A stretch of DNA of 64,000 nt from Betaproteobacteria bacterium UBA5582 (GCA_002425245.1 DILW01000171.1:9804-73803), one strand, 5' to 3'; positions 22,356 to 43,947 are shown, counted from the first letter of the stretch. Numbers and translations: made by a program. Notes: generated by a model not told the origin, from the sequence alone.

Positions 22356-22357
22356 AG
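22353..22357. repeat. Left copy of the 5-bp target-site duplication ACAAG of element X
   Basis: Identical to 43941-43945, which lies immediately outside the other terminus of X. Confidence 0.8.
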
Positions 22358-22405
22358 TGTAGGTTCTCATTCAGACTGAGATATCCCTACTGAAATATCT
22401 TGAGG
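22358..22405. repeat. Distal (left-type) end of element X
   Basis: TGTAGGTTCTCATTCAGACTGAGAT shares its first 13 bp with the Y distal end. It contains an AGACTGAGAT motif that resembles the AGTCTAGAT of the right-end repeats. The tniQ stop is only 48 bp inside. Confidence 0.65.
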
Positions 22406-24385
22406 TTAGCTGTTCCCGTTTGAGAGGGATCCTGCCAAATTTCCCAACAGATGAGATGATCCTACGGAAACAACGCACTTGCTGTCGGCGTTTACCTTGA
22501 TCCTCGATTCTACCTCCGAAGGCGCAACGCCCATCAAGTCTGCCAAAAATCGCCTGAGCTCATCCGTCGCAGGATAGATTGCCAGACGTGGTGGCATCAC
22601 CGTGTGCCCTCGAATTGGAAAAATCCCCGCCTCCGCAAGAAGATTCCCCATTTTCTTGGAACTGGTCCGCAAACTTGCTGCGATATCACGCCGATACACA
22701 TGAGCCTGCCGAAATCGCTCGACGTCCTCTATCCGCACGCGAGAGCCCAACTCCTTGTTGGTTCCTAGCTTTTCTGCAGAAACATAGCCATTCTGGCAAA
22801 GCCAGTAGGCCATCTGGTCCTTTATGGCGAGATATCTAGCCATTTCCGGGATGCTCATCCAAGTCAGCTTTCCACTGTTCAGACCAGACCACCAATTTTT
22901 CAGCTGCGCGCGGTCGAATACCCAACTGGATAAACCCACCGCTCCCACCAAAACAGATTGTGGTTTGATTTGTCCAGCCTTCACCGCGTCCACCAAGGTA
23001 GCCACCTGTTCAGTAGTCCAGGTCCAGTAGCGCAAGACGTGACCGAAGGCGACTTGTTCTTCCTCGGGGATCGTCACCACTGGCAAGCCGTCCGTCAAAG
23101 AAAGAATTTCATCCACCTCGTTCCTGGGCACACACCACGGCATCGGTCCTAGTCGAGCCACCCTCCGTGCAGTTGGAAACAAGAGTTTCAGCATGCGACG
23201 CATGCGCATCTTCCCTAGGCCCAGCATCTCCATCGCCTTGCCCATTGTGATCTCGTTGTCGAGTTGAGTAAGGACCCAGTCCAACTGATCACGACGCACC
23301 ACCATGAACCGCCGTCCAGTACTGCTGAACGACTCCTGCCCGTCCAAAAGACCATCCTGCACCATTGCGCGCAGCTTTTTAGGTGACACGCCGATTTCCC
23401 GAGCTGCAGCCTGTGCCGGAATCCACTGAGCATTGGCGAGCAGTTGTTCAGCAAGACGATTGCGTTTGCTCAGCCCCCCTTTCCAATGCTGGCTCAGCCA
23501 CTGCTCAAAGGCATCCCGAACAGGAATGAAAGCACTCTCCGAAAGCCCCTTGTATAGATAGGTATGGGCCTGTTTGAAAACCCCCTTCAGACCGCTCTTC
23601 TGCCCTTCACCCAGTCCTTGCATCCTCGCCCACCCGTCCTGAAAGGCCAGAGGCCACTGGGCCAAGATTTCCGCAGCAAGCGAGGACACAGGCCAAGAGG
23701 CCTGCATCGAGAAAGCCTGCCGAAGTTTCAAGGGCTTCGGCCCAGAGATCGGGTCCATATAGCCACCCAAGAAACGGATCAAACGTTGCACCTGCTCGAT
23801 GGTCATTCCTGCCAGGATGGGAAAATCGTCACCGCCCTCCCGACCCAGTAACCGCATCTCCAGATATCCGGCCAAGCGTCGCACATTGTCTGGAGCGGCT
23901 TGAGGATATTCATGTCGGAGATCGGCGCCACAGGGGCACCGCAAGAGATGTTCCCTCCGCCAAGGAACTGCTTGTCCGCACGAGCTGCATTGGTCTACCA
24001 GCCAGACACCGTGTTGGGGGCAAGCATCATGAAACATCAGCTCCCAGCCGGCCTTCCAAACAGGCTCCTCCATCAGGCAGAGGGGACAAAACCTCGCCTG
24101 GCGCTGATTCCAAACCCGCCCCTTGTCTTGAACCAGTTCTGCCATACGGTTGATATGAGCGTGAAGGTCTGGATCCAAGGTATGACTGGGCAACAAATGG
24201 TTCTGCCGCAGCCAACCCGGGTCATAGCGAGCCCCCAGTTGCTTCAACTCATACAAACTCAGGCAATTGGCTTCGGCCAATCGCAGCATGTAGCCTTGGG
24301 GCCCTTCAGTACGGCTCGGCGCAGGCCGTACCAGGAGATGAGGGATCGAGAATGGGTCTGCAAAAGGGATTCTGTTCTTCGTCAT
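22406..24385 (-). CDS. tniQ: TniQ/TnsD-like target-selection protein
   Basis: 659 aa. The N-terminal TniQ zinc-ribbon pattern is present (CPLCL...CPQHG...CSSCG...CPCG). It is the last gene of the tns operon and is homologous to 44758..46677. Confidence 0.85.
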   Translation of the reverse strand: MTKNRIPFADPFSIPHLLVRPAPSRTEGPQGYMLRLAEANCLSLYELKQLGARYDPGWLRQNHLLPSHTLDPDLHAHINRMAELVQDKGRVWNQRQARFCPLCLMEEPVWKAGWELMFHDACPQHGVWLVDQCSSCGQAVPWRREHLLRCPCGADLRHEYPQAAPDNVRRLAGYLEMRLLGREGGDDFPILAGMTIEQVQRLIRFLGGYMDPISGPKPLKLRQAFSMQASWPVSSLAAEILAQWPLAFQDGWARMQGLGEGQKSGLKGVFKQAHTYLYKGLSESAFIPVRDAFEQWLSQHWKGGLSKRNRLAEQLLANAQWIPAQAAAREIGVSPKKLRAMVQDGLLDGQESFSSTGRRFMVVRRDQLDWVLTQLDNEITMGKAMEMLGLGKMRMRRMLKLLFPTARRVARLGPMPWCVPRNEVDEILSLTDGLPVVTIPEEEQVAFGHVLRYWTWTTEQVATLVDAVKAGQIKPQSVLVGAVGLSSWVFDRAQLKNWWSGLNSGKLTWMSIPEMARYLAIKDQMAYWLCQNGYVSAEKLGTNKELGSRVRIEDVERFRQAHVYRRDIAASLRTSSKKMGNLLAEAGIFPIRGHTVMPPRLAIYPATDELRRFLADLMGVAPSEVESRIKVNADSKCVVSVGSSHLLGNLAGSLSNGNS

Positions 24386-25432
24386 TTAAGTACTTCCTTT
24401 GGCGAGATTCATGCCGAGCTTTCTGGCCACGGGGGAGCCGACGAGCTCTTGGCGGGTGTGTAGCTGAAATACCTCACCAGAACGGTCAAGGGGACGCAGC
24501 ACCGACTCAGGATGGAAAGGATTGAGACGGTCAGGCACGTCCCGCCAGACCCGATTGCGAAATCCCGCCGCCAAAGCCGACAGATCAACCTTTTCCAACC
24601 CTTCGGCTGTAGCAACAGAAACAGCTCCTTCCAGAATCTTGATCACGTAGTCCATGAGGCCATAACTGCCCACATGGAAGCGTCGAGCCTGATTGCTTTC
24701 GTGCAGGGGTGTTTCCATAGGGATGGGCAGATAGGTCTCAAGCGCCTTGAGAACCCCGCGGAATTCCTGGAAATCATCCGCTTGGTCGAAGGCAAATGGG
24801 GCCACCCGTATCCGGGCAGAAAACCGCCTTGCCAGCTGCTCGTTACTGTTGACCACTGACTCAGCCGCCGGCAACCCACAAGCCACCATGCCCACCTGGG
24901 TGGCTTCCAGTAGATTCTTCAACCAGTCGGTAATGTCTCGGAACGCGTTAAGGCTGGGGGCATAGAAGAGATGCTGGAACTCATCGAGCAGCACGATTTC
25001 CACACCACACCGCCTAAACAGGTCATGGATTCGCGCTGTCATTTCCGGCGCAGTACCACGGTGAGCCTTGGGGTACCCCATAGCTTCCAGAATGGCACTA
25101 GCCAAGCTACGGCTAGTCGGTGACGAGGGTACCGAGACCAGAAGTACGGGAATGTGCGTGCGCTCAGTCTCGTAAACCCTAGGGAAGCTCTCCAGATACG
25201 CCTCTACCATCGTGCTCTTTCCAGCCCCTGAGGGGCCAGAAAGTAACAGTCCGCCGCCAGCGTCGTACTTGCGACGGCGCACGTGCAACTCAGCCATAGC
25301 GTGCATCGCTTCACGGTAGCGCCGATGTGGCAGGGGATCCAGGACCAACTTGAATCCTTGGACAGGAAGATGAGTAGGAATCTGGCCGTTTGGTGCCGAT
25401 ATATATCGCGCAAGGATGGTGACCGGATCCAT
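24386..25432 (-). CDS. tnsC: TnsC/TniB-like AAA+ transposition ATPase
   Basis: Walker A LSGPSGAGKST and Walker B IVLLDEFQH. It lies between tnsB and tniQ. Confidence 0.85.
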   Translation of the reverse strand: MDPVTILARYISAPNGQIPTHLPVQGFKLVLDPLPHRRYREAMHAMAELHVRRRKYDAGGGLLLSGPSGAGKSTMVEAYLESFPRVYETERTHIPVLLVSVPSSPTSRSLASAILEAMGYPKAHRGTAPEMTARIHDLFRRCGVEIVLLDEFQHLFYAPSLNAFRDITDWLKNLLEATQVGMVACGLPAAESVVNSNEQLARRFSARIRVAPFAFDQADDFQEFRGVLKALETYLPIPMETPLHESNQARRFHVGSYGLMDYVIKILEGAVSVATAEGLEKVDLSALAAGFRNRVWRDVPDRLNPFHPESVLRPLDRSGEVFQLHTRQELVGSPVARKLGMNLAKGST

Positions 25433-25434
25433 CG

Positions 25435-27399
25435 TTAGGCCACCTTTCTGACAACAGAAAAATCAGGCAATTCGTCATCGAGGCCCGATGGAAGCACCTC
25501 GGGTGGCTCTGATTTGCCCCTCTTAACTGGCTTACGCGCCTCAGCCAACGGATCTTGACTGTGCAATACGGCCTCAGAGTCATGCATGGCAACTCTTGCG
25601 CCGATCTTCCGGTGCCCCATTTTCTTAGCCTTCAAGGCCTCCTGAATCAGGTCCTCAATTTCCGCCTTGGCCTGCAGCAACTGCTCCGATAAAACGTGAT
25701 CGCCAAAGCGCTTACGGGCTTTCTCCCGCACAAGACGATGTATTTCCCGGGGCAAATCTTGAGCGTATGCCGCCAGCTTCGCCGGCACCTTCAAATATTC
25801 CTTAGTGACCGAATCGAAGACATGGATGTGCGCGACCGTGTCCTCGTAGTATTTGAGCTGCACAGGAAGATTCTCACCTGTGCGCCGGCGCAAAACCTGC
25901 AGTTGCTCGGAGTTGTACTGGAGGCCATCAAGCTCGATTCCGTAGTGGAACAAGGTGCGCTTCGCTGGGATGCCGGTGATTACCTCCAATTGCTGAGGAT
26001 GAACCGGCAACTCGATGATGCGACGATCAGCAGAGAGTATCCATTGGTCGATGGGACGAGCACCGATGCCACGGTGAGTCGTGACGTTGTAGACCTCAAC
26101 TACCCATTTGGTCAGAAGATGCACCAACGACTGCATGTCGATGACAGCCTTGTCTTCGGCAGGATAGTCTCCCCGCTCATCTACGGAACTGAATACAGTT
26201 CCAGGCAAGCGATGGATCAAGCCCATATTCATGGTCCGGAAAAATCGCTCAATGGCACCCTTGTGCTGCGGCGTCTTTGAACCACAGAACAGCATTTGAA
26301 TACCCATCTCCATGCACGAGGATTCCAAGGCCTCAGAGTGGAGGTCGGTGCCGTTATCCACGGCAATTAGTTCGGGGATGCCATGGGCAGGCCAGGATCC
26401 CTTGATATCTGGGAAGCGAGCTAACCACTCATCTTTGGGCAGAATGGCCCGACGGAGGCACTGCAGAACGCCATGACTGGAAGGCGCGTTGAAGGAGATG
26501 TAAAACCCAACCACCATGCGCGAATAGTGATCGATGGCCATGGTCAGCCAAGGCCGCCCCAATGGCAGCATCGTCAGACTATCAATGACAATCAGATCAA
26601 GGGGCGTGTGATCGATCTCAATGCGTTCGAGCACGCTGCCAACTTTCACATTCCCTAGCGCCGCCCGGTACTTTACGCGTGCCGCCTCGGCGCCTTCCCG
26701 TGCCTTGTCGACGAGATCTTGCTGAAGGTTGTCCAGCCAGCGGTAGATTGTGGCTCGAGCTGGCTTCCTGATCCGCTCATCGGCCGGCAAGCCATTGTTC
26801 ACGCCATCGACACGCCGGAACACCTCTTCAACCACTTTGAGCTTCGGCAACTTCTGGTTGGTGAGATATACCGAAGCGATGACCTCCTCAAATATCTGAT
26901 AGCGACGCTTGGCCCTCGGACCGGAAGAGGGTTTGTTCCGTGGGATGAGGCAAGTGACGCTCTTGGTCAGCCGGTATCGGCGCCACCAAGCCTGGACGGT
27001 TGAAGGTGCTGGGGGATAGTGATCCTCCAGCTCTCTGGCCGCGCCCTCAATAAGGGAGCGCCACCGACTCGAATGGTAGGGGTTAGCGTCGGGATTTAGT
27101 TTGTCCAAATAATGCTTGCGACGCTTGGCTTCCCGCTGCTGACTCTCGGGGTAAGTCCCCAGGTCACGGGGCACCGTGATGTAGATGGCGTCCTTACTAG
27201 ATCCGATGGATGCCACGTCGATTTCCCATTCGTGCGACAACCACTTTTGGTGGAGTTCGGAATCGGTCAAGTTGAGAATTTCCCCCTTGTCCGATATCAG
27301 TTGGAGTTTGCCCGTTGCGAGACGGCGGGAAATCTCGTAGCCGATCTGCGTTACAACCTCCACCAAGCGCATGCCATGCTTAAAAGAGCAGCGTTGCAT
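25435..27399 (-). CDS. tnsB: TnsB-like DDE (Mu/rve-type) transposase
   Basis: Core strings IEIDHTPLDLIVID, IAVDNGTDLHSEALE and HKGAIERFFRTMN. The start is taken at MQRCSFKHG by analogy with the Y copy, giving a 20-bp overlap with tnsA. Confidence 0.9.
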   Translation of the reverse strand: MQRCSFKHGMRLVEVVTQIGYEISRRLATGKLQLISDKGEILNLTDSELHQKWLSHEWEIDVASIGSSKDAIYITVPRDLGTYPESQQREAKRRKHYLDKLNPDANPYHSSRWRSLIEGAARELEDHYPPAPSTVQAWWRRYRLTKSVTCLIPRNKPSSGPRAKRRYQIFEEVIASVYLTNQKLPKLKVVEEVFRRVDGVNNGLPADERIRKPARATIYRWLDNLQQDLVDKAREGAEAARVKYRAALGNVKVGSVLERIEIDHTPLDLIVIDSLTMLPLGRPWLTMAIDHYSRMVVGFYISFNAPSSHGVLQCLRRAILPKDEWLARFPDIKGSWPAHGIPELIAVDNGTDLHSEALESSCMEMGIQMLFCGSKTPQHKGAIERFFRTMNMGLIHRLPGTVFSSVDERGDYPAEDKAVIDMQSLVHLLTKWVVEVYNVTTHRGIGARPIDQWILSADRRIIELPVHPQQLEVITGIPAKRTLFHYGIELDGLQYNSEQLQVLRRRTGENLPVQLKYYEDTVAHIHVFDSVTKEYLKVPAKLAAYAQDLPREIHRLVREKARKRFGDHVLSEQLLQAKAEIEDLIQEALKAKKMGHRKIGARVAMHDSEAVLHSQDPLAEARKPVKRGKSEPPEVLPSGLDDELPDFSVVRKVA

Positions 27400-28021
27400 G
27401 GCGATCTCCTTCCGTAACAGAAACAAGCGTGTTGGGCGTGATCTCAGCAGCGAGATCACAGTAGAGATAACCTTGAGCCAAAAGCCGCTGCGTAACCTCA
27501 GCCCCGAGGATCATTTCCGAGGTGGCCAGAGTGATCGGCATTTGTCCAAGCAGGCGGACAAGTTCGGCTCGCATCGGCAATACCTCCGCCGTCAGCTTTG
27601 TTCGCACATAACTGAGCCGCCGTAAATTGCTGCGCAGCGGCTCACGCTGGCATTCCAGCTCCGTAACGATGCGAAACTGGGTAGGTGTCTGCTTGTAGTG
27701 GCTAGCAATAGCTCGGTACTTCTCTGCAATCTTGGGTTTGCTGAGCTTCTTGGAGGGCTTAATTTCAAGATGGACGCGAGATCCATTAGATAGCAGAGCT
27801 TCAAAGTCCGGAAAGTAGGCTCGCATCCGTTCCCCATCCCAGTAATGGATCAGAGCCGGTTGTTCTTGGTAGGACAAAACTCCTGGGGAGTATTCCAACA
27901 GAAGGACAACGTCCCCCTCCAAAATCGATTCGCACTCGACCATCCGGCCGAGCTTCATGGACGGTATCCGCATCCGGAATCCCCGCCCGCTGCGGGTTAG
28001 CGCCTTTCGTGACAGCATCAT
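27380..28021 (-). CDS. tnsA: TnsA-like endonuclease subunit
   Basis: Restriction-endonuclease-like motifs (ECESILEGD, YFPDFEAL, HLEIKPS). The ATGATG start at 28021 follows GAGGAG. Confidence 0.8.
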   Translation of the reverse strand: MMLSRKALTRSGRGFRMRIPSMKLGRMVECESILEGDVVLLLEYSPGVLSYQEQPALIHYWDGERMRAYFPDFEALLSNGSRVHLEIKPSKKLSKPKIAEKYRAIASHYKQTPTQFRIVTELECQREPLRSNLRRLSYVRTKLTAEVLPMRAELVRLLGQMPITLATSEMILGAEVTQRLLAQGYLYCDLAAEITPNTLVSVTEGDRHATLLF

Positions 28022-28146
28022 GCTTCTCCTCACGACCGGCGTAGAATCTCCCTGCGCCAGCCGCATGTCGTCAATAATCGAGACAAAAAAGGACTCTCGA
28101 TCAGTGCAAAACTGACCGTTGTCTCGTGTAATCAGTGGGATAAGGC

Positions 28147-28242
28147 TTGACGCCCGAGATGGGGGAGGACGATACTTGGCTTGTCGATAGCGGTAGCGTC
28201 AGCTGCCCATCAAGGGGGCAAGCCTTTGTGCTTGCCCTTTTT
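28147..28242 (+). promoter_or_regulatory. Conserved intergenic module: TTGACG-N18-GATACT, 8-bp palindrome, GC hairpin plus T5 (candidate ~60-nt sRNA or xre/tnsA operator-attenuator)
   Basis: TTGACG at 28147-52, GATACT at 28171-76, and GACGATAC-N16-GTAGCGTC. The hairpin is GGGCAAGC-ctttgt-GCTTGCCC (28216-37) followed by TTTTT. The same layout and spacing occur in element Y (50436-50527). Confidence 0.35.
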
Positions 28243-28672
28243 ACATTTCAGGGGCCTCCTTTCTTTCGGAACAGAAGGCCCTAGCCTGCGCGGAGAGCTC
28301 GATTCCCGCTGTACAAAGCGACGCAGGCAAACGCAACGCGAGCCGGATGAGATATATCTGTTCAACGCGGAGTTGCCCTAGTTGTGCCTCTAACTCATGG
28401 AGCAAGCTGTATTCCTCTTCGCTCGCATGAAGCGGTAGCGTGATCTGGCGGCGCGACTCTGCCAGGGCAATTGTCAGTTCAACCCGTTCATCCTCATCCA
28501 AATCGAGGCCTCGAATCAGGCGCTCAACGAACGCGCGCCGAGGGGGACCCTTTTCGCCCCGCTCCAACGCAGACACATAGCTGGGCTCGTAGCCGAGACG
28601 ATCAGCAACCTCCTTCTGCTTCAGGCCGCGCCGTTGCCGAAGCCGCCGAAGGCATAGAGAAAATGGGCTCAT
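28241..28672 (-). CDS. XRE-family HTH regulator (transposon-associated, conserved in X and Y)
   Basis: HTH RGLKQKEVADRLGYEPSYVSALERGEKGPPRRAFVERLIRGL. It is a clear homolog of 50524..50955. Confidence 0.8.
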   Translation of the reverse strand: MSPFSLCLRRLRQRRGLKQKEVADRLGYEPSYVSALERGEKGPPRRAFVERLIRGLDLDEDERVELTIALAESRRQITLPLHASEEEYSLLHELEAQLGQLRVEQIYLIRLALRLPASLCTAGIELSAQARAFCSERKEAPEM

Positions 28673-28679
28673 TGGTTTC

Positions 28680-29063
28680 TTACAAGGCCACTTCTCGGAG
28701 CTTGGCGCACATCCCCTTCAGAAAACGGGGTGGCACTGCATTTGCGTACCGGCGAATATCAGCAATGAGCACCTGAGCCTCTTCGGGAAGTTGCCCATCT
28801 TCTGGCGACATTCCTCGCTCAACAGCCGACTGGCGCTCAATCGCTACAACCTCGGGTTCGCTGACCTTCAACGCGTCGAGTAAGCGTCGAAGGGTCCCTT
28901 TTCGGGGAGGAGGACACTTGCTGTTCTCGATACTGCAGTAATAGCCCGCGGAAACACCGGCCTGAACAGCGACCATCGCCTGGGTGAGGTTCAATAGTTC
29001 GCGTTGCCGACGCAAGCGGGCGCCAACGGTATCCACGAATGCGTTTGATTCTGACATATCCAT
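28680..29063 (-). CDS. Second XRE-family HTH protein (paralog of 28241..28672)
   Basis: HTH LLNLTQAMVAVQAGVSAGYYCSIENSKCPPPRKGTLRRLLDAL. The start is taken at MDMSES (29063). Confidence 0.7.
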   Translation of the reverse strand: MDMSESNAFVDTVGARLRRQRELLNLTQAMVAVQAGVSAGYYCSIENSKCPPPRKGTLRRLLDALKVSEPEVVAIERQSAVERGMSPEDGQLPEEAQVLIADIRRYANAVPPRFLKGMCAKLREVAL

Positions 29064-29198
29064 TTGCCTCACCACCCTCACGAAATTGCAGTCGCAAAAA
29101 AGCGTAGCGAGAGCAGGTTTGTTATGGAAGGCAAAATCTTGGCAAACTGAACGGCACTTTTTGCTGGGCTCATTTAACTCTCGATTCATCAGGTCGAC

Positions 29199-30356: not shown

Positions 30357-30379
30357 CAAGGAAGCTTGGAGAAGATAAT

Positions 30380-31099
30380 CTACGTCCGAGTCCAAGGCTG
30401 AGCGGCTAGTGGCAGCTCATTCAACTCCGCCCGAGCCTCCCGCCAGCTCGGGTAATGCTTGTCCAGCAGATCGATGAACCGCTGGCTATGGGTGGGCTCG
30501 ATCAGGTGCAGCATTTCATGCACCACCACGTACTCCAACAGGTCCTTCGGTTTCTTGACCAGTTCCGTGTTCAGACGGATCGTGCCGGCCCGGTGATTGC
30601 AACCACCCCACTTGGTCTTCATCCGCTGCAGGAAGTAGGCGCTGACGGCAACGCCCAGCAGCGGCTGCCACTTTTGGATCAACGCAGGTATCGTCTGGTG
30701 CAGCAGCGAACGATGCCAGTCATGCATGACCTCCTCGCGCTTTTCCGGTGAGCTACCGGGACGGATCGTCAGCGTGATGCGCCGGTGATCCAGCTTCACG
30801 CCTGGCTTGGCATCCTGCTCAACCACAGAGAGCAGATAGCGCCGGCCCCACAGGTAATGACTTTCCCGCTCGACGAATTGGCGCGGCGTTTCCCGGGCCT
30901 GGGCTTGTAGCTTTTCCTGCTGGTCGCGTATCCAGCCGAGTTTGGAGATGGCGTAGGCGCGAGCAACTTCCAGGCGGGTGCTGGTCGGCGCAACCAGGGT
31001 GACGTGCCCGGCCGGCGGATGTACCGACAGGTGGACATTCTTGACCGCCTTGCGGGTGACCTCGATGGTCAGCTCGCCTAGCTGGATGCTTTCCGTCAC
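30380..31099 (-). CDS. YgjP-like (DUF45/M48-type) zinc metallopeptidase linked to the type I R-M operon
   Basis: HExxH motif ([14 protein letters not shown]). The start overlaps the hsdR stop. Confidence 0.8.
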
Positions 31100-34206: not shown

Positions 34207-34216
34207 GGGCGGCCTA

Positions 34217-35494: not shown

Positions 35495-38211
35495 GCTGCC
35501 CCCATCCGCTTGAGGTGCTCCTCCACCTTGGCCGACAGTAGCGCCACCTCATCCACTAGCTGCGGCAATGGCGTCGTGTAGCGTTCGGCCAGTTCGCGGA
35601 TGCGGGCGGTCAGAGTCTGCCCGACGCGGTCAAGTTCGCCTTGCAGGTCAGCAGCCATCCGGGCCAGCCATTTGTCGTCCACCACCAGGGTCTTGATCTC
35701 ATCCACGCTGAGCTGGGCGTACTTCTCATAGGCCAACAGATCCAGAGCAGTATCCGCCTCTTTCACTCGCCCCTTGAGGGTGGCTTGTTGCTCCAGCAAC
35801 TCGAGACAGCGGACGGTGACTTGAAAATCAGCGAAGCTGACCGGCAGCGGCTCGCTTTCAAGTTGGGCTTTATAAAGGGTCTCGATCTCGGCGAACTGCT
35901 CAGCGGCCTGTTTGCTTTTGGTCTTCAGCGCAGCGACTGCTTCCGTGTAAGTGTTGAGTACGGCTCTTTCTGCCAGGTCTCCTGTAGCCGCAAGGCGGTC
36001 CTTCACCACCTTCAAAGTGAGCTTACCCTTGGGATTCTTGAGCACGGAGAAATAGCTGAATTCGGTGAGTTCACGAAGCTTGGCAGCGTGTTCATTCGCC
36101 TGCTCCATAAGGGTGTGGTAGCCCATGCAGGCCACCTTGTCGTTCTCTTTCCACAGCGCCAGCAATGCCTGGGTGTAAGCCTCCTGAGCATCGCCCTTCG
36201 TGGAGACATCCTTGAGCACCCCCTCCTCACCACCGTGCTCCTCTTTCAGTTCATCCAGGCTGGCAGTGATGGCTTCGAGCTCAGCCTGCAAGACATCCAG
36301 CGCCGCCTGCTCTTCAACGAAGTAGCGGGCCACCATCAACGGCTTGGGAATCAGGTCGCAGGCCCAGCCCTTGTCCTTCGATTTGCCTTTCTTGTCGACC
36401 TCGATGATGCGCGCCGGTTTGGCTACCCAGCCATCGGCGGCGATCAGGTAGGCGTCGTCCTGCATGGTTTCAGCCCAGTAGTCCATCAGATGCTGATAAA
36501 CGTCGTAGGGATCGAGCAGGGGCGCGGCCTGGAAGGCGGCGAGCAGGGTTTCGGAGACGGTGGCGATCAGGGCTTTGGGGTGATCGTTCTGAGCGAAGCC
36601 GGTGAGGCGCGGTGTGATGGCTTCGCGCCATTTGCCGAACAGGTTGTTCACCTTGCCGGTGAAGGCGATGAATTCGCCGTGGCCGAGGATGGCGGCCTTG
36701 ATCTCACCCATCGGCAGCTTGAGGCGGGCGTACCCGGGGCGGCCGGCCGATTCAAACAGCGTGGCGCGTAGGCCGGGCATCTGCTGCCAGTCGGCGGCGA
36801 AGGCGTCGATGTCCCGCTCCGGGATGCCACCGTTGAGGTGGGCGTCGATGTCCTGCAGGTCTTCCGGCTCGCTGCTGTCGATGTAGCGCGGCAGGTTAAG
36901 GTTGAAATCGTTCTTGGCGTCGGCGATCTCGGCGAAGGGCACCATGCGGGCGTAACGCGGGCTGTCGATCTGCCGGGTGAAGGTATCGACGATCTTGTGG
37001 ATGTCCTGCTCGCGCAGGCGGTTCTTGTTGCCGTCCTTGATGTAGCCCTTGGCAGCGTCGATCATGAACACGCCTTTGCGAGCGGCGGCGTTTTCCTTGT
37101 CCAGCACTAGGATGCAGGCGGGGATGCCCGTGCCGTAGAATAAGTTGGCTGGCAGGCCGATGATGCCCTTGAGGATGCCGGAGCGCACCAACTGCTGGCG
37201 GATGACCGCCTCGGCATTGCCGCGGAACAGCACGCCGTGGGGCAGGATGCAAGCGGCTTTGCCGTTGGCCTTCATGCTGCGGATGATGTGCAGCAGATAG
37301 GCGTAGTCGCCCTGCTTGGCCGGCGGCACGCCCCAGCCGAAGCGCTGGTAGAGGTCGTCTTCCGGGGTAAGGCCGGTGCTCCAGGTCTTGTCGGAAAAGG
37401 GTGGATTGGCGACCACGTAGTCGTAGGTGCGCAATCCCTCGCCATCCTTGAATTTGGGCGCCGCCAGGGTGTTGCCGGAGAGAATGTTGGCGGTGGGGAA
37501 GTCATGCAGGATCATGTTCATCCGCGCCAGACCGGCGGTGGTGACGTCTTTCTCCTGTCCTTCCAAAGTGATCTTGTTTCCAGCTTCGGCAGCGACCTTG
37601 AGCAGCAGCGAACCCGAGCCGCAGGTCGGGTCGTAGGCAGTGGTGGCGGCCTTGGTGTTTTCGGGTGAGATGCCGATCACCTTGGCGATGACCCGGCTGA
37701 CTTCGGACGGCGTGTAGAACTGCCCCTTGCTCTTGCCGGAATCCTGAGCGAAGTGGCGCATCAGGTACTCGTAGGCGTCACCGAGGATGTCGTCGTGCTC
37801 GGCGCGATTCTGGGAGAAGTCCAGCTCCGGCTTCTGGAAGATGCTGACCAGATTGGAGAGCCGTTCCACCATGGCCGAGCCTTCGCCCAGCTTGTTGGGA
37901 TCGTTGAAGTCCGGGAAGTCGCTGCGCGCCAGCCGGGCATTGGCATCGATCAGGGGCTGGATGATCTGGGTGTTGATCTTGTCGCCGATGTCGCTCTTGC
38001 CCTTGAGCGCGATCATGTCCTTGAAGCTGGCGCCCTTGGGAATGACCACGGGCGGGGCGAAGTCGTCGCTGTCGGCGTATTTGTCGCTGATGTACTTGAT
38101 GAACAGCATGAACAGGACGTAGTCCTTGTACTGGCTGGCATCCATGCCGCCACGCAGTTCATCGCAGGAGGCCCAGAGGGAGGAGTAGAGATCGGATTTC
38201 TTGATGGCCAT
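35485..38211 (-). CDS. hsdM: Type I R-M N6-adenine methyltransferase subunit with ~400-aa C-terminal extension
   Basis: HsdM N-terminus (DLYSSLWASCDELRGGMDASQYKDYVLFMLFIKYISDKY), SAM motif YDPTCGSGSLLL and catalytic VVANPPFS. The C-terminal half is coiled-coil-rich. Confidence 0.9.
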   Translation of the reverse strand: MAIKKSDLYSSLWASCDELRGGMDASQYKDYVLFMLFIKYISDKYADSDDFAPPVVIPKGASFKDMIALKGKSDIGDKINTQIIQPLIDANARLARSDFPDFNDPNKLGEGSAMVERLSNLVSIFQKPELDFSQNRAEHDDILGDAYEYLMRHFAQDSGKSKGQFYTPSEVSRVIAKVIGISPENTKAATTAYDPTCGSGSLLLKVAAEAGNKITLEGQEKDVTTAGLARMNMILHDFPTANILSGNTLAAPKFKDGEGLRTYDYVVANPPFSDKTWSTGLTPEDDLYQRFGWGVPPAKQGDYAYLLHIIRSMKANGKAACILPHGVLFRGNAEAVIRQQLVRSGILKGIIGLPANLFYGTGIPACILVLDKENAAARKGVFMIDAAKGYIKDGNKNRLREQDIHKIVDTFTRQIDSPRYARMVPFAEIADAKNDFNLNLPRYIDSSEPEDLQDIDAHLNGGIPERDIDAFAADWQQMPGLRATLFESAGRPGYARLKLPMGEIKAAILGHGEFIAFTGKVNNLFGKWREAITPRLTGFAQNDHPKALIATVSETLLAAFQAAPLLDPYDVYQHLMDYWAETMQDDAYLIAADGWVAKPARIIEVDKKGKSKDKGWACDLIPKPLMVARYFVEEQAALDVLQAELEAITASLDELKEEHGGEEGVLKDVSTKGDAQEAYTQALLALWKENDKVACMGYHTLMEQANEHAAKLRELTEFSYFSVLKNPKGKLTLKVVKDRLAATGDLAERAVLNTYTEAVAALKTKSKQAAEQFAEIETLYKAQLESEPLPVSFADFQVTVRCLELLEQQATLKGRVKEADTALDLLAYEKYAQLSVDEIKTLVVDDKWLARMAADLQGELDRVGQTLTARIRELAERYTTPLPQLVDEVALLSAKVEEHLKRMGAAWK

Positions 38212-38423
38212 GGGGTGTTGCTTGGGTCATTGGGCGAAAGGCGAAACTTTAACGCATGACCCTACGCATCGAGCCGCTCAATTACCGACTATCAGCCTTT
38301 GCGGACATACACCTTCTAAAAGCAATTGGCCTAATCTGCTCAGGGAGCAGCCATTTTGCCTTTGGAGCCTTGGAATGAAGGCTTTTTTGCTAGCTAGCTG
38401 CCTTCCTTGGCTTCACTTTCGTC

Positions 38424-39278
38424 CTAGTATTTCCACGGGGCCCATACCTTTTCGGAACGGGGTAGTTTAAGGATCGAAAAGACACAGTCGTATTGCTCAG
38501 AGACGATCTTCATTTCCTTGATAATGCTGTTCTTGTCAGCATGAGGAAACCAGACCTGCGCAGCCATCTCGACCCCGTGGCGATCATGGGTCACTGTCGC
38601 ATTTGCCGCCAATGAGGCACTTGGAATTTCGATGGCGCTTTGACTGGTCTTGAAAAAGGCGCCAGCATTGAAGGCTCTATTGCTTGACCAGGCCCAGTCC
38701 ATATAGCCGTCTTTCGAGACGACAAGCACCGCACTGTCGTCTGTATGCTCAAGCCATCTCAAAGTCGCGGCTGTCAAAGAGACACCATAGCGATCTGCGC
38801 AGTGCCCAAGCAGGTCAAAATCGACTTCGGCATTTAGTTGCTTCCGATAGTCGTTCAGCGGCATTAGTAAGTTAGATGCAAACAGGTCGGCTTGAGCTTC
38901 GATATTGGTTGAGTCTGCAGACCAATTACGCATGTCCTCCTCGGTGCACATGAATTCATTTTGCATTGTTCTGTGCAGGATGTAGTGACCTAGCTCGTGA
39001 GCTTGAGTGAAGCGAGTACGGCCTTCCGAAGTGACTTTCGAGTTGTACAGTAGCTTCCAGGCTGTCTTGTTTTCATTCGGAAACAGCATGCCTTCAAAAT
39101 TCTTGATGGCGACCCCCTCTACTTCCGTGATCGGGTCCGACCATTTGAAGATATTGGCCGTTTCCTTAGCCATCAACGGCACATCAACTGGAAACCGTTT
39201 TTGGAATTCTGCTGGAATGGCATCCAATATTTTGCAGAGGCGGTTGGCTGCCTTCTGAGGCGTCTGTTTGTCGCCCAT
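38424..39278 (-). CDS. capP: ImmA/IrrE-type metallopeptidase (CapP-like CBASS regulator)
   Basis: HExxH motif (AHELGHYILH). It is translationally coupled downstream of the XRE gene and divergent from the CBASS operon. Confidence 0.8.
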   Translation of the reverse strand: MGDKQTPQKAANRLCKILDAIPAEFQKRFPVDVPLMAKETANIFKWSDPITEVEGVAIKNFEGMLFPNENKTAWKLLYNSKVTSEGRTRFTQAHELGHYILHRTMQNEFMCTEEDMRNWSADSTNIEAQADLFASNLLMPLNDYRKQLNAEVDFDLLGHCADRYGVSLTAATLRWLEHTDDSAVLVVSKDGYMDWAWSSNRAFNAGAFFKTSQSAIEIPSASLAANATVTHDRHGVEMAAQVWFPHADKNSIIKEMKIVSEQYDCVFSILKLPRSEKVWAPWKY

Positions 39279-39598
39279 TAGCTCTTCTTGAAGGTTTCCA
39301 TAATCTTGCGCAAACGTTCCTTGTCTTCGGCTTCCAGATCTTGGTAGTCACGATAGAACGCTGCATCGAGATGTCTTTGCTCTGGCGCGCGAATGTCATC
39401 CTCAATGAAGAAAACTGAGTCAACGCCGAGGACTTTCCCTAGTGCATTTAGCTTCTCGGCCGATGGTCGCTGCGACTCACGATTCTCAAGTTCCCAAATA
39501 TAGCTTTTGCTGAGCCCCGAGAGTTCGGCGAGCTTCTCCAGGGTCAGTTCTTTCTCTTTGCGAAGTGATTTCAGCTTATCGCCGAGTCGAGTTGCCAC
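39278..39598 (-). CDS. capH: XRE-family HTH repressor (CapH-like CBASS regulator)
   Basis: 106 aa with HTH LTLEKLAELSGLSKSYIWELENRESQRPSAEKL. It is divergent from the CD-NTase gene. Confidence 0.8.
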   Translation of the reverse strand: MATRLGDKLKSLRKEKELTLEKLAELSGLSKSYIWELENRESQRPSAEKLNALGKVLGVDSVFFIEDDIRAPEQRHLDAAFYRDYQDLEAEDKERLRKIMETFKKS

Positions 39599-39786
39599 TT
39601 TTTTCTCCGTGTTTACAATAACTTATTAAATAATAGCACGATTCCGAACTTTTTCTATGGCTTTTACAATTCGAGAGGTGTAGCATCTGGAAAAAGTTCG
39701 CTATTCCGAACATTTAGTTAGCTTACATTGGTACTCATGTAAGCCCGGTCGCTCAGTCTGAAGCAATAAAAAAGAAAGGAATATGG
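39599..39786. promoter_or_regulatory. Divergent capH/cdn promoter-operator region with repeats
   Basis: CGAACTTTTTC (39646-56) pairs with GAAAAAGTTCG (39690-700) as an inverted repeat. ATTCCGAAC occurs as a direct repeat at 39641 and 39703. A palindrome GCTTACAT-N8-ATGTAAGC lies at 39721-44. Confidence 0.5.
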
Positions 39787-40755
39787 ATGTCGAAGGTGCA
39801 TGTTGGGCACGCGGAGTTGGCCAGCTTCGCTGAAGAAAGGGTCAATCTACCCAAAGACAAGGCCGATGAATATCGCGATCAAGCCCAGCGCCTTCAGGAC
39901 AAGCTGGAGCGCTATCTGGACGAGCACCCCGACTTTACGCTGAAGCGCATGCTTCTGTCGGGCAGCCTGGCCAAAGGCACTGCGCTGCGTTCGCTGAACG
40001 ATATCGATGTAGCAGTGTACATCCAGGGCGCCGATGCACCGCATGACGTGAGAGCCTTGCTGGGCTACCTGACAGAGCGGTTGCGCAAAGCGTTCCCGAA
40101 CTTTAGTCCGGATCAGGTGAAGCCGCAGACCTATTCGGTTACGGTCTCGTTCAAAGGTAGCGGCCTTGATGTGGACGTAGTGCCAATATTGTATTCAGGC
40201 AAGCCGCAGTGGCGCGGCAACCTGGTTAGCCAGGACGATGGTTCCTTCCTGGAAACCAGCATCCCGTTGCACCTCGAGTTCGCACGCAAGCGGAAACGGG
40301 CGCAGACGCCGCACTTCGCCCAGGTTGTTCGGCTGGTGAAGTATTGGGCTTCCCTGCAGAAGGTGGCAAACCCGGAAAATTTCCGCTTCAAGTCCTTCAT
40401 GATCGAGATGATCCTCGCGAAGCTTTCGGATAAGGGCGTGGACTTCTCGGATTATCCCGAGGCGCTACAGTCGTTTTTTACCTTCATCGCAAACAAGGGC
40501 TTGCAAAAGCGCATTGTATTCGAGGACAACTACCTCGCCTCGGATGTGCCTGCGTCGAACGACCTGATCCAGATCATCGATCCAGTCAACGTCACGAACA
40601 ATGTTGCACGCCTGTATACCCAAACCAATCTGGATGCCATTGTCGATTCGGCGCTCGAGGCCGGCGAGGCAATCGATGCCGCGCTTACCGCCCCTACCAA
40701 ACAATTGACCGTCTACTACTGGCAGAAGGTCTTCGGCTCGTCTTTCCAAGTTTGA
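39787..40755 (+). CDS. cdnC: CD-NTase (cGAS/DncV-like nucleotidyltransferase), CdnC-like
   Basis: Active-site context SGSLAKGTALRSLNDIDVAVYI. From memory it strongly resembles the E. coli MS115-1 type III CBASS cyclase. A good RBS is present. Confidence 0.85.
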   Translation: MSKVHVGHAELASFAEERVNLPKDKADEYRDQAQRLQDKLERYLDEHPDFTLKRMLLSGSLAKGTALRSLNDIDVAVYIQGADAPHDVRALLGYLTERLRKAFPNFSPDQVKPQTYSVTVSFKGSGLDVDVVPILYSGKPQWRGNLVSQDDGSFLETSIPLHLEFARKRKRAQTPHFAQVVRLVKYWASLQKVANPENFRFKSFMIEMILAKLSDKGVDFSDYPEALQSFFTFIANKGLQKRIVFEDNYLASDVPASNDLIQIIDPVNVTNNVARLYTQTNLDAIVDSALEAGEAIDAALTAPTKQLTVYYWQKVFGSSFQV

Positions 40756-40762
40756 GGTACCT

Positions 40763-41275
40763 ATGTCTTCCTTCACCATTACTGACTCGGCTACCTTTAC
40801 GATCACCCATGCTCGCCACATGGGCGCCAAAGTAGCCGCAGATTTGAAGCGTATCCAACGCTTGTACGGTGGCATTAGCGACGAATGGATCGCTCAATAT
40901 GAGGCTGAACTCATCGAATACATTAAAGCCGGCTACGTCGATACCGTGACATATGGGTACCAAATCGACGATCAGTGGATTGAACCCACGCTGCGCTACA
41001 CGGCACGCGAACTGAATGGGTACGATTTCAGTGACGATGATCCTGGCAAGGTACGGCCTGGTGCAGATGTCACCGGCGCTCGCTTCACCAGTTATCTCAC
41101 CTATAGCAGCAAGTGGAGCAATGCGAGCCAGGCCGAAAAAGATTCATTCAAGGGACGGCTTCCGTTTAGCCGGGGTACTGGTTCCGAACCAACGATCAGG
41201 GGCTACTTGCTCAACGACAAGACTTATTCGGCGGGCGGGCGGTCCCTTGCCCGTTCCAGCGTAAGGAGCTTTTGA
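40763..41275 (+). CDS. cap7: Bacterial HORMA-domain protein (Cap7-like)
   Basis: 170 aa. The strings TFTITHARHMGAKVAADLKRIQRLYG and NDKTYSAGGRSLARSSVRSF match my recollection of CBASS HORMA proteins. It sits between the cyclase and the AAA+ gene. Confidence 0.8.
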   Translation: MSSFTITDSATFTITHARHMGAKVAADLKRIQRLYGGISDEWIAQYEAELIEYIKAGYVDTVTYGYQIDDQWIEPTLRYTARELNGYDFSDDDPGKVRPGADVTGARFTSYLTYSSKWSNASQAEKDSFKGRLPFSRGTGSEPTIRGYLLNDKTYSAGGRSLARSSVRSF

Positions 41276-42222
41276 TGATGAACAAACCCACAATTGACGA
41301 ACTATTCGAGCGTCGCATCACCTATCCCGATTTTGAGCCACAGGAGCGACTGGCAAAGCTAGTTGGTTTGGATGACCAAAAGGCCCGGCTGGCCAAGATA
41401 CTAGGCTTACTGGTGAATCCGGTGGCTCTGGAGATGTGGGCCAAGGAGCATCATCCCGGTCAAGCGGCGAAAGCGCTGCTCGATACAGTGCTGCGCCGTC
41501 CGCCGCTGGTCGTCCTTGCCGGCGACGTTGGTTCTGGTAAGACTGAACTGGCCGAGACTATCGGCGATGCCGTTGCACGCGCACAGCGCATCAACATCAC
41601 TCTGTTCCCCTTGAGCCTGGCGACACGCGGCCAGGGGCGTGTTGGTGAAATGACACAACTCGTTTCCGCTGCGTTCGACCATACCGTGGTTGAGGCGAAG
41701 AAACTTAAGGGCGCAGGAAACGGTCCTTCGCGTGGCGCGGTCATTCTGTTGGTCGACGAAGCGGATGCTCTGGCCCAATCGCGCGAGAACGCGCAGATGC
41801 ACCACGAGGATCGTGCCGGGGTGAACGCCTTCATCCGCGGGATTGACCGGATTGCCAACGCCCGCCTGCCAGCGGCGGTCATCATGTGCACCAACCGCTT
41901 GAGTGCCCTGGACCCGGCAGTACGCCGCCGTGCTGCCGAAGTGTTGAGTTTTTCCCGTCCGAACGACGAACAGCGCCGCCATGTCTTCCACCATCGCCTG
42001 GCTCCGTTAGGCCTAGGTACGCAGCATATCGACGCGCTGGTTCGTGCGACGGGTGCCAAGAATGGACATGATATCGGCTTCACTTTTTCCGATCTGACGC
42101 AACGCTTGATTCCGACGATCGTGCTTGACGCCTACCCGTCGAATCCAGTTGAAGGCACGCGGGCGATTGCGATTGCTCGCGATATGCAACCCACGCCGCC
42201 TTTCCGCGACGGCGTGAATTAA
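41275..42222 (+). CDS. cap6: TRIP13/Pch2-like AAA+ ATPase (Cap6-like)
   Basis: Walker A AGDVGSGKT and Walker B VILLVDEAD. The ATG overlaps the HORMA stop (ATGA) and follows AAGGAG. Confidence 0.8.
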   Translation: MMNKPTIDELFERRITYPDFEPQERLAKLVGLDDQKARLAKILGLLVNPVALEMWAKEHHPGQAAKALLDTVLRRPPLVVLAGDVGSGKTELAETIGDAVARAQRINITLFPLSLATRGQGRVGEMTQLVSAAFDHTVVEAKKLKGAGNGPSRGAVILLVDEADALAQSRENAQMHHEDRAGVNAFIRGIDRIANARLPAAVIMCTNRLSALDPAVRRRAAEVLSFSRPNDEQRRHVFHHRLAPLGLGTQHIDALVRATGAKNGHDIGFTFSDLTQRLIPTIVLDAYPSNPVEGTRAIAIARDMQPTPPFRDGVN

Positions 42223-42231
42223 GCAGGTGAG

Positions 42232-43749
42232 ATGATGACTCAAGCTGTTTCGGTAAGGCGCGAAGGCGATGTTTTTCAGGCTAGGATGTTCTGGAAGAAG
42301 GCAGCCAGCCTACTAGATCCGGACTGCCCTATCATTAAGGTCGGGTTCGAGTGCGGACCGAAGAGCTTCGACGACCTCTGGGTCGAATATGATCCGGCGC
42401 GCTGTCTTCAAGATCAGCACGGGCATCCTTTGCGGCGTGAGCACATCCAGTGCAAATGGCATGTGAGGCCGGATACCTACGGCCACATGCATCTGATCGA
42501 TCCCGAGTTCATCAATGCCGAAAGGCATTCGCTGCTGCAGAAGGCCCGCCAAGCGCAGTTGGTGCATGCGCCCGAAGGCGTTGGCTCGCGCTTTCGGCTG
42601 CTGACGAACTGGCGCGTCGCTGACCCTCTGCGCAAACTTGTGATCCAGCGCTCCAGCACGCTGCGACTCGACGACTTGTTTGCTACCAAAACTGACCGCA
42701 GCGAAACGGGGCAGATACGCAAGGCGTGGTGTGATCACCTAGGGATTGATGAAGACGAACTGCGTATATTTTTGCGTACGCTGGCACTGAGCGAGTCGGT
42801 CGACTCTCTCGATGCGATGCAGGAGAGCCTGAACGATCTATTCCGGGGGGTTGGCTTGCGTTGCGTGTATGGCGATCAAGTCGCGTTTCCATACGATGAG
42901 ATTGTCTTCAACTGGATGGCGCAAGGCCGGCAGGAATTTGACCGTGCCTCGTTCCGTGACGCCTGCGCGCAGGAGGACCTGCTGCAATCAGGGCAAGGTC
43001 GGGCGATCGTATACGGTGTTAGATCCTTTGAGCATCCGATCGATCAGCTCAGCGATCGCTGTGTCGAAGTCCTCGATTTCGTACCCAATTTTAATGAGCG
43101 CTTGATACACGATGGCGCCTCTTGGTCTAAAACGCTCTATCCGGCTTTGCGGAGCTTTCTGCTGTCCGCAGCAAAGAAAAGCAACAAACTACGACTCGCT
43201 CTGGATGCGCATATCACCTTGGCTTTTGCCGCCGGTTCGGTGCTCAACGTCAAATCGGGCTGCGAGATCGAACTGGAACAACGTTCTGGTGGCCGGAATA
43301 TCTGGAAAGCCGGCGACAGCAACCCGGAGCCGTCATGGGCCAACTGGTTTTTTGAACGAGAGGAACTACGTACGGATGGCGTAGGGCAAGTGGTCGTCGT
43401 GGCATTGACCCATGACATAGAGGCCGACGTGAAGCGCTATCTGGCCCAGGCCTTGCCCAATGCGGCGCGGATACTCGTCGCGCGTCCTTCGATGGGCATC
43501 GGCCGTTGGTCCATTGCCAGCGGGCAGCACGCGATGATTTTGGCCGAGACACTCGCCCAGCGAATTGCAGCTGAGCAAGTGGTGAATCGCCAGCCAATCC
43601 ATCTTTTTATAGCTGGGCCGAATGCCTTTACGTTCTTTCTAGGACAGTATCAGCCCGGACTTGGCAAAACTACCCTCTATGAATTCGATTTCGAAGGCTT
43701 CAATGGTAGCGGCTACACGCCATCGTTGATCTTGCCAGTTGCCCAATGA
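42232..43749 (+). CDS. cap4: Cap4-like effector: N-terminal PD-(D/E)xK-type nuclease domain plus C-terminal SAVED domain
   Basis: N-terminal strings GDVFQARMFW...FDDLWVEYDP...IQCKWH. The C-terminus is SAVED-like (LALDAHITLAFAAGSVL, IHLFIAGPNAFTFFLGQY). It is the last gene of the CBASS operon. Confidence 0.7.
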   Translation: MMTQAVSVRREGDVFQARMFWKKAASLLDPDCPIIKVGFECGPKSFDDLWVEYDPARCLQDQHGHPLRREHIQCKWHVRPDTYGHMHLIDPEFINAERHSLLQKARQAQLVHAPEGVGSRFRLLTNWRVADPLRKLVIQRSSTLRLDDLFATKTDRSETGQIRKAWCDHLGIDEDELRIFLRTLALSESVDSLDAMQESLNDLFRGVGLRCVYGDQVAFPYDEIVFNWMAQGRQEFDRASFRDACAQEDLLQSGQGRAIVYGVRSFEHPIDQLSDRCVEVLDFVPNFNERLIHDGASWSKTLYPALRSFLLSAAKKSNKLRLALDAHITLAFAAGSVLNVKSGCEIELEQRSGGRNIWKAGDSNPEPSWANWFFEREELRTDGVGQVVVVALTHDIEADVKRYLAQALPNAARILVARPSMGIGRWSIASGQHAMILAETLAQRIAAEQVVNRQPIHLFIAGPNAFTFFLGQYQPGLGKTTLYEFDFEGFNGSGYTPSLILPVAQ

Positions 43750-43845
43750 AATAGCCGGTCTGCCATAAGAACCAGCTATTTGTGGTTAGAAGGCCGCTGA
43801 CCGCGAAGGCCGAACATCTGCCATTGAATCTTGACGCTCGAATAC

Positions 43846-43880
43846 AAAGAGGCCACTCTGTGCAAGTGGCCTCTTTGTTT
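43846..43880 (+). terminator. Rho-independent terminator of the CBASS operon
   Basis: AAAGAGGCCACT-ctgtgca-AGTGGCCTCTTT followed by GTTT. Confidence 0.7.
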
Positions 43881-43885
43881 AGGTA

Positions 43886-43940
43886 ATTCCCACGAAATCT
43901 AGACTTTTGGGAAAAATCTAGACAATCGTGAGATCCTACA
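43886..43940. repeat. gyrB-proximal (right-type) end of element X
   Basis: 55 bp, of which 52 are identical to 56237-56291. It has two AAATCTAGAC copies 19 bp apart and ends ...GATCCTACA. Confidence 0.8.
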
Positions 43941-43947
43941 ACAAGCC
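43941..43947. repeat. 7-bp junction ACAAGCC holding the right TSD of X (ACAAG) overlapped with the left TSD of Y (AAGCC)
   Basis: 43941-45 equals 22353-57, and 43943-47 equals 56292-96. Confidence 0.8.

Follow-up and report, generated by a model that had tools for sequence, protein, structure and literature searches.

Tn7 carries its transposition genes tnsABCDE in the same direction as its target gene glmS, reading away from the attachment site, and its tnsAB promoter, which TnsB represses, is located in the right end. In the customary Tn7 layout, tnsA stands just inside the right end and the cargo fills the stretch from the target selector to the left end. The name right end is given by convention to whichever end lies upstream of the transposition genes; the attachment (att) sequence of Tn7 lies outside it, and among mini-elements with two right or two left ends only the right-right kind works (PMC11406308). 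Analysis of a 64,000-nucleotide stretch of Betaproteobacteria bacterium UBA5582 (GCA_002425245.1, DILW01000171.1:9804-73803; the whole stretch is referred to as the window) revealed two complete Tn7-like elements, designated X (22358-43940) and Y (43948-56291), directly 3' of gyrB, in which the customary layout is not found. Very probably, X and Y are serially inserted, complete members of a gyrB-targeting Tn7-like lineage which has canonical polarity and keeps its cargo between the right end and the transposition (tns) operon.

The defining Tn7-like features were found in both elements, namely TnsA with a DDE transposase TnsB, an AAA+ regulator with TniQ, TGT...ACA termini, a 5-bp target-site duplication (TSD) and insertion specific in site and orientation. 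As in Tn7, TnsA and TnsB form a heteromeric transposase accompanied by an AAA+ TnsC and by a TniQ-domain selector that has its DNA-binding region at the C-terminus, the site accumulates stacked, diverged elements, and insertion occurs in one orientation a few bases past a conserved essential gene, with the right end beside this gene and the tns genes co-directional with it. X and Y differ from Tn7 in their target (gyrB instead of glmS), in their short TniB-like TnsC (348 aa), in the absence of TnsE, in the xre gene that precedes tnsA, in a right end made of three sites in 55 bp, compared with four overlapping 22-mers in Tn7, and in having 5-16 kb of cargo between the right end and the tns operon, with almost nothing between tniQ and the left end in the X type.

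The closest solved homologues of TnsB and TnsC are those of type I-F3 CRISPR-associated transposons (CASTs) such as Tn6677 and PseCAST, whose TnsC is of similar length, and an Xre-family regulator is common in many I-F3 elements. In contrast to these, TniQ of X and Y is long, TnsD-like and equipped with a helix-turn-helix (HTH) domain instead of pairing with Cascade, xre precedes tnsA and not tniQ-cas, and the cargo lies ahead of tnsA. Of the hallmarks of type I-F3, a tniQ-cas8/5-cas7-cas6 operon and a CRISPR array within the element, the operon is not carried by X or Y: no Cas protein was found among the cargo open reading frames (ORFs) scanned with PADLOC, all large ORFs of both elements being accounted for, and CRISPR arrays were not searched for. 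The Tn5053/Tn402 family shares with X and Y a TniB-type ATPase, a TniQ protein and subterminal repeats about 19 bp apart, which in Tn402 are 19-mers, but it is devoid of the TnsA that X and Y possess and carries a TniR serine resolvase with its res site; no resolvase was detected among the X and Y ORFs in Pfam and PADLOC scans. A Tn5053-type copy (L073), the ends of which were not located, displays the usual order of tniA-tniB-tniQ-tniR followed by mer cargo.

Anatomy of the two elements

The terminal 12-mer TGTAGGWTCYCA occurs exactly four times in the 64 kb, at 22358 and 43948 on the plus strand and at 43940 and 56291 on the minus strand, and the outer flanks of these termini carry matching duplications:

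22353-22357: left TSD copy of X, ACAAG, identical to 43941-43945
43941-43945: right TSD copy of X, ACAAG, overlapping the left TSD copy of Y at 43943-43947
43943-43947 and 56292-56296: TSD copies of Y, AAGCC on both flanks
56299-58773, minus strand: gyrB (Pfam), the 3' end of which is the attachment site

The junction between X and Y reads ..CCTACA-ACAAGCC-TGTAGG.., with both TSDs overlapping. These overlapping duplications rebuild one original site a few bases past the gyrB stop codon, which implies that the insertion of X preceded that of Y, the latter taking place between X and gyrB. The stop codon itself (56299-56301) is 7 nt from the Y terminus, and the insertion points of both elements are 2-9 nt past it. 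The boundaries proposed for X and Y in the preliminary description are correct, the termini and TSDs being observed directly.

Both elements follow the same order, that is, the gyrB-proximal end, the defence cargo, xre-tnsA-tnsB-tnsC-tniQ and the distal end. The distance from the right end to xre is 15.3 kb in X and 5.3 kb in Y, and the tniQ stop codon is separated from the left terminus by 48 nt in X (stop 22406-22408, terminus 22358) and by 810 nt in Y. The 48-nt spacing, a tns operon reading out toward the distal end, a cargo enclosed by the gyrB-proximal end and xre-tnsA, its sizes (about 15.2 kb in X and 5.3 kb in Y) and its directions of transcription had all been put forward beforehand and were borne out here, with all of the X cargo and nearly all of the Y cargo found in that place.

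Extra ends next to tnsA, a prospect raised in the preliminary description, were not found: neither the terminal motif, nor the right-end repeat motif GTCTAGATTT, nor a position weight matrix (PWM) trained on the right ends of relatives revealed an internal end near 28.07-28.24 kb or 50.3-50.5 kb. A different parse, whereby the X cargo would be owned by the tns genes of Y with a right end at about 51 kb and a left end at about 29 kb, was rejected since no ends are present at these positions and the TSD pairs contradict it. Relic end junctions within the X cargo, which would be a sign of fused stacked elements, were limited to chance-level matches with two mismatches at 32898 and 39289, without any GTCTAGATTT.

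A third right-end-like array (reading TGTAGTATCCAG..TCTGGATTTTGC..TGGATTT as the reverse complement), together with a hairpin (AAAAAGCCAACC..GGTCGGCTTTTT), abuts the X left end at 22293-22355, and the TSD of X includes the terminal ACA of this array. Its appearance is that of a right end left by an older, decayed layer, termed W; a left end for this putative layer was sought near 16.8 kb and was not found. In two same-genus genomes (L062, L063), a homologue of window positions 7893-8355 is located only 1.6-2.4 kb from gyrB, so that up to about 48 kb (8.4-56.3 kb) may be inserted or rearranged relative to these genomes, and not X and Y alone.

Transposition genes

The genes of the two operons are all on the minus strand and co-directional with gyrB:

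28241-28672, minus strand: X xre, HTH_31/HTH_3, directly upstream of tnsA
27380-28066, minus strand: X tnsA, PF08722
25435-27459, minus strand: X tnsB, DDE transposase, rve PF00665; Tn6677 TnsB 6e-49
24386-25432, minus strand: X tnsC, 348 aa, TniB-type AAA+, PF05621 2e-31; VchTnsC 6e-24
22406-24385, minus strand: X tniQ, 659 aa, N-terminal TniQ PF06527 and C-terminal HTH_17 PF12728, matching I-F3 CAST TniQ chains in PDB
44758-51030, minus strand: Y operon xre-tnsA-tnsB-tnsC-tniQ, with PF08722, PF00665, PF05621 and PF06527
within 50524-51030, minus strand: Y xre
within 49661-50569, minus strand: Y tnsA, PF08722
47722-49680, minus strand: Y tnsB, its product 71% identical to X TnsB
46679-47725, minus strand: Y tnsC
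44758-46698, minus strand: Y tniQ
44274-44591, minus strand: small Y-specific ORF of 105 aa between tniQ and the left end, no Pfam or PADLOC match

TnsB matches the TnsB structures of Tn6677, PseCAST, ShCAST and Tn7 in PDB, and the TniQ proteins of X and Y (646-659 aa) are TnsD-like with an HTH. The true start of X tnsB is probably near 27399, the alignment with Y TnsB beginning at M21. In every relative examined, xre occupies the same position directly 5' of tnsA. Since a tns operon detached from the right end needs a control of its own, Xre is proposed to provide it.

Polarity and the right end

The ends and the hairpin considered below are the following:

43886-43940, minus strand: X right (gyrB-proximal) end, three sites with 19-bp spacing, TGTAGGATCTCAC, TCTAGATTTTTCCCA and TCTAGATTTCGTGGGA
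56237-56291, minus strand: Y right end, followed by the TSD AAGCC at 56292-56296
43844-43878, both strands: X hairpin on the inner side of the right end, folding at -23.9 and -29 kcal/mol with z of -4.9 and -6.3
22358-22465, plus strand: X left (distal) end, terminus TGTAGGTTCTCAT, blocks at about 22-26, 45-52 and 96-108
43948-44273, plus strand: Y left end region, terminus TGTAGGTTCCCAT, AGGTTAC and GATAATCCTAG blocks in common with the X type

The 55-bp right end is nearly palindromic around TTTTTCCCAAAAG. Because the gyrB-proximal end lies upstream of the tns genes, beside the att gene, and bears a compact array, it is an ordinary right end and the polarity of the elements is canonical. Consequently, the "reversed internal geometry" of the preliminary description is a misnomer: with the operon co-directional with gyrB, only the position of the cargo differs, and the layout is that of a cargo bay shifted across the tns operon, from its left side to its right. 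In a true reversal, the gyrB-proximal end would be functionally a left end and the lineage would insert in a polarity opposite to that of Tn7. Such a reading could draw on the tns genes abutting the distal end, which in Tn7 marks the right end if gene direction is ignored, and on the naming of ends, which varies between families, the target-proximal end of V-K CASTs being named LE. However, the operon reads toward the distal end and not inward from it, and the tight three-site array at the gyrB-proximal end is typical of right ends, the blocks of the distal end being more spread out, which makes a true reversal improbable in the extreme.

The hairpin located just inside the X right end is a candidate bidirectional terminator, judging from its predicted folding on both strands. 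Reading by eye, a hairpin-like palindrome was observed within about 20 bp of the right end in nine out of ten aligned right ends; three of those seen by eye were folded, and the hairpins of G004 and G027 gave -20 and -26 kcal/mol (one strand folded). At the gyrB site of five same-genus genomes, one (G395) was found empty and shows, again by eye, a GC-rich palindrome directly past the gyrB stop codon, which looks like the native gyrB terminator. Insertion would part gyrB from this native terminator, and the element appears to bring a replacement hairpin with it.

Other observations were made at the gyrB 3' end. The four occupied same-genus genomes (G163, G099, G011, G293) carry foreign DNA directly after gyrB, with distant-clade right ends (TGTCGGATGACAG..GTGAAA) after gyrB in G099, G011 and G293; four of the five same-genus genomes (L061-L065) gave no TnsB match and G099 only a 29% one elsewhere. 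In G001, the gyrB 3' end (L011:992-1030) runs ..GACGTGTAGGTTTGTAGGTTTGTAGGTTCTCAC, the terminal octamer TGTAGGTT is present in three tandem copies and the element terminus apparently provides the TAG stop codon of gyrB.

The left end and the 3' end of tniQ

Alignment of nine left ends displayed conserved blocks at positions 1-13, about 22-26, 45-52 and 96-108. The block at 45-52 is AGGTTAC, or AGGTTAG in X, the TTA of which is the tniQ stop codon in the X type, and the block at 96-108, GAT(A/G)ATCCTAC, is an inverted copy of the terminus that reads GATGATCCTAC in X, inside tniQ. Their conservation extends to coding (X type) and noncoding sequence (G027 type and Y) alike, and a 41%-identical relative has the same spacing of terminus and inverted copy. 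TnsB may be conjectured to bind the left-end blocks. As the X-type operon ends 48-103 nt from the left terminus, the blocks extend as far as the 3' end of tniQ, one of them lying within it. The earlier statement that a multi-site array must overlap tniQ is upheld in part, the block at 96-108 being inside tniQ and those within the first 55 bp or so just reaching the stop codon, and the binding of TnsB remains putative.

In the Y left end region, a weak TniQ relic was noticed at 43948-44170 (42 aa, 40% identity to Y TniQ 468-509, frame -1, E = 1e-4 with about 800 nt searched), along with an inverted terminus-like motif at 44156-44167 (TGTAGGATTTCG, two mismatches). That the Y left end derives from an X-type tniQ 3' end is suggestive and not established, DNA similarity being confined to short blocks and the 42-aa match being the sole protein signal. 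At 44623-44687, a 41-bp palindrome (44647-44687) centred on TTTAGAAAATCTAAA overlaps a promoter-like site of the 105-aa ORF and, at 13.6 bits, is the highest-scoring match of the right-end site matrix outside the true ends. About 5.7 kb past tniQ in G362, whose TnsB is 41% identical, TGTAGGTTTC and GGGAACCTACA delimit a unit of 110 bp (L072:15638-15747). This unit represents either a left end that, like those of the X type, contains an inverted copy of the terminus internally, or a miniature end-to-end element.

Conservation of the layout among relatives

Relatives were sought by a contig scan and in a sample of 401 Rhodocyclaceae genomes, nine of which hold a close-clade TnsB (at least 71% identity to X). 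Those with delimited distances, and two members of a distant clade, are as follows:

G004: TnsB 95%; right end to xre 16.2 kb; tniQ stop to left terminus 48 nt; TSD ATTAA
G003: TnsB 86%; right end to xre 15.3 kb; tniQ stop to left terminus 48 nt; TSD AACTA
G002: TnsB 85%; right end to xre 16.4 kb; tniQ stop to left terminus 48 nt; TSD AACTT, junction ambiguous by 1 nt
G027: TnsB 72%; right end to xre 7.7 kb; tniQ stop to left terminus about 103 nt; TSD GATGT
G152: TnsB 71%; right end to xre 8.5 kb; tniQ stop to left terminus about 103 nt; TSD GATGT
G261: TnsB 76%; right end to xre at least 6.8 kb (contig edge); tniQ stop to left terminus 9.5 kb
G360 (distant clade): TnsB about 32%; right end to xre 5.1 kb; tniQ stop to left terminus 10.2 kb; TSD AAGGG
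G375 (distant clade): TnsB about 32%; right end to xre 10 kb; tniQ stop to left terminus 12.1 kb; TSD ATTGT

Seven further Rhodocyclaceae elements (TnsB at least 71% identical) were observed to have their cargo ahead of xre-tns; gyrB adjoins the cargo-side end in five of them and TSDs match in four, which supports the earlier suggestion that the layout is a family trait and not a rearrangement. The same xre-to-tniQ order was seen in G039 and G111, whose right ends were not captured, nor was the left end of G039. A right end of the same orientation stands 3-14 nt past the gyrB stop codon not only in the window but also in G001-G004, G027, G152, G290, G104 and G360. The same preliminary description had let both elements abut the distal end, which holds for X (48 nt) and fails for Y, with 0.8 kb after tniQ, as it does for G261 (9.5 kb) and for the distant clade (10-12 kb).

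In six close-clade elements, the TSD pairs the gyrB-proximal end with the tniQ-adjacent end (ACAAG, AAGCC, AACTA, ATTAA and twice GATGT), which implies that these two ends moved in one event. This observation bears on the possibility that each element in fact comprises two units, a transposase-less cargo element next to gyrB and a minimal xre-tnsABC-tniQ element with a cryptic right end just 5' of xre. Stacking at gyrB is indeed rife, tandem junctions being present in the window, G001, G002, G027 and G152, and xre and cargo have been swapped together between X and G004. On the other hand, sequences resembling a terminus or a right-end site were absent near xre and tnsA in the window and from the 8-17 kb upstream of xre in four relatives, where no end motif was found near either gene. 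In addition, the elements of G003 (right end L008:849, left end L005:15070) and G004 (right end L007:1023, left end L006:15102) are solitary. Together with the six TSD pairs, these solitary elements exclude the cargo and the tns module as separate units, and a two-unit origin is accordingly considered very unlikely.

Members of the distant clade (TnsB 32-35%) likewise insert 3' of gyrB and carry 5-10 kb ahead of xre, with end repeats TGTCG...GTGAAA; G360 and G375, the two for which both ends and matching TSDs were obtained, have a further 10-12 kb after tniQ. A search for TSDs combined with inverted repeats recovered the G360 and G375 ends again, as the terminus search had done; candidate ends in L054, G362 and a second G360 locus were without subterminal repeats, fit chance expectation and were rejected, and a generic inverted-repeat search at the more distant TnsB loci L056, L057 and L059 gave noise only. 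Outside this family, a Ralstonia megaplasmid element (CP022787) shows the order regulator, tnsA, tnsB, tnsC, orf, tniQ, with methylase and helicase genes filling about 12.5 kb ahead of the regulator, and a TGTAGGTTCTCAG terminus, accompanied by a hairpin, at the far side. Judged from these sequences, right-side cargo is an old and broad trait of this TnsB branch, and the tns operon reaching the left end is a narrower feature of the X type.

In the distant gyrB-targeting clade (L047-L054) and in the Ralstonia element (L066:23024-24022), tnsC and tniQ are separated by an additional gene of about 1.0-1.4 kb, the product of which is annotated in CP022787 as a hypothetical protein of 333 aa. Directly outside the TGTAGGTTCTCAG terminus of the Ralstonia solanacearum element (CP022787, L066:4795-4845) lie two overlapping LexA-box-like palindromes (CTGTATATATTTACAG and a second one), so that the attachment site may adjoin an SOS-regulated promoter.

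The extent of the trait, reaching elements of 32-35% TnsB identity and Ralstonia, raises the question of whether the layout is simply ordinary, with cargo ahead of tnsA widespread in Tn7-like elements and implicit in published catalogues. The catalogue of Benler et al. 2021 delimited 6,549 elements with ends allowed up to 20 kb from tnsB, and lists betaproteobacterial "clade 4" elements from Azonexus and Thauera. Such catalogues probably contain elements of this kind without comment. Conversely, the searched literature, the coverage of which was incomplete, yielded no paper that states or discusses cargo ahead of tnsA or gyrB as attachment site, and no already described subfamily of this kind, another prospect raised beforehand, was found in it. 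The review convention assumes that the tns genes follow the right end (PMC11406308), and in the Tn5053-type comparator, whose ends were not located, tniA is near one end of the tni-mer block and the cargo comes after tniR. An ordinary layout is thus rather unlikely, less so than the two alternatives considered above.

Several points do weigh against gyrB-targeting elements of canonical polarity with a right-side cargo bay as proposed here. The internal blocks of the left end score poorly with the right-end site matrix, no convincing PWM matches being obtained past the termini; the Y right end has no strong adjacent hairpin upon folding; the left side is open in G261 (9.5 kb) and in G360 and G375 (10-12 kb after tniQ); and the survey spans one bacterial family and one Ralstonia record. 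Since G261, G360 and G375 carry DNA after tniQ, the argument that there is no room at the left end covers the X-type subclade only.

Cargo and its turnover

The cargo and the genes flanking gyrB are located as follows:

28673-43843, both strands: X cargo bay (Pfam and PADLOC)
51295-56208, plus strand (toward gyrB): Y cargo QatABCD, PADLOC QatA-D, E 1e-90 to 1e-275
58847-59953, minus strand: dnaN
60163-61662, minus strand: dnaA

The X bay holds a second HTH gene, a 385-aa protein without assignment, YgjP, a type I restriction-modification system (hsdR/S/M), capP/capH and a type III cyclic oligonucleotide-based antiphage signalling system (CBASS), the operon of which (CD-NTase, HORMA, TRIP13, nuclease-SAVED) is on the plus strand, toward gyrB; the restriction-modification and capH/capP genes point the opposite way. 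Comparison of X with the G004 element, whose TnsB is 95% identical, showed 92% identity between the left terminus and approximately codon 16 of tnsA, and 84% over the first 96 bp of the right end. Between the breakpoints, at 28019 and 43845 of the window, the cargo displays no detectable similarity and the xre proteins are about 55% identical. Cargo turnover is thus observed directly, and the homology stopping at tnsA codon 16 or so and at the right end implies that xre travels with the cargo and not with the transposase genes. The right ends of X and Y, for their part, share 94.5% identity over 55 bp, compared with only 71% between their TnsB proteins. On these comparisons, the region from the right-end hairpin to tnsA, xre included, behaves as a swappable module. 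No relic junctions revealing how the cargo is swapped were found.

Discussion

The proposed course of events is the following. TniQ would read the conserved 3' end of gyrB and recruit TnsC, upon which TnsA and TnsB would cut the element and paste it 2-9 nt past the gyrB stop codon, in a single orientation with the right end beside gyrB and a 5-bp duplication left behind. Once inserted, the tns operon, detached from the right end, would be controlled by Xre, and the right-end hairpin would act as a terminator. From their sequence, X and Y may well be mobile at present.

A more extended scenario, which is offered tentatively and is less probable than not, would see in the att-proximal side a dedicated and exchangeable cargo bay. 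There, a minimal right end with a two-way terminator would insulate the element against read-through from gyrB and from the outward tns operon of any element stacked upstream, the Xre promoter would free the tns operon, and the left-end cis sites would be fused to the 3' end of tniQ, so that right end, cargo and xre could swap as one module among gyrB-stacked elements.

For transposon biology the finding is an incremental point that introduces no new mechanism. Nevertheless, the lineage breaks the rule by which Tn7-like elements are delimited, namely that tnsA marks the right end and the cargo lies beyond tniQ, and its defence cargo would be mis-assigned or missed if only the DNA downstream of the transposition genes were inspected. 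The layout also provides testable handles in the 55-bp right end, in the left-end blocks running into the tniQ frame and in the xre gene replacing the autoregulation of the right end. Taken together, this layout and the gyrB landing site explain the stack of at least 34 kb of CBASS, Qat and restriction systems beside the dnaA-dnaN-gyrB cluster, and, if the exchange of right end, cargo and xre as one module proved true, the gyrB stack would be a recombination workshop for defence islands next to this cluster.

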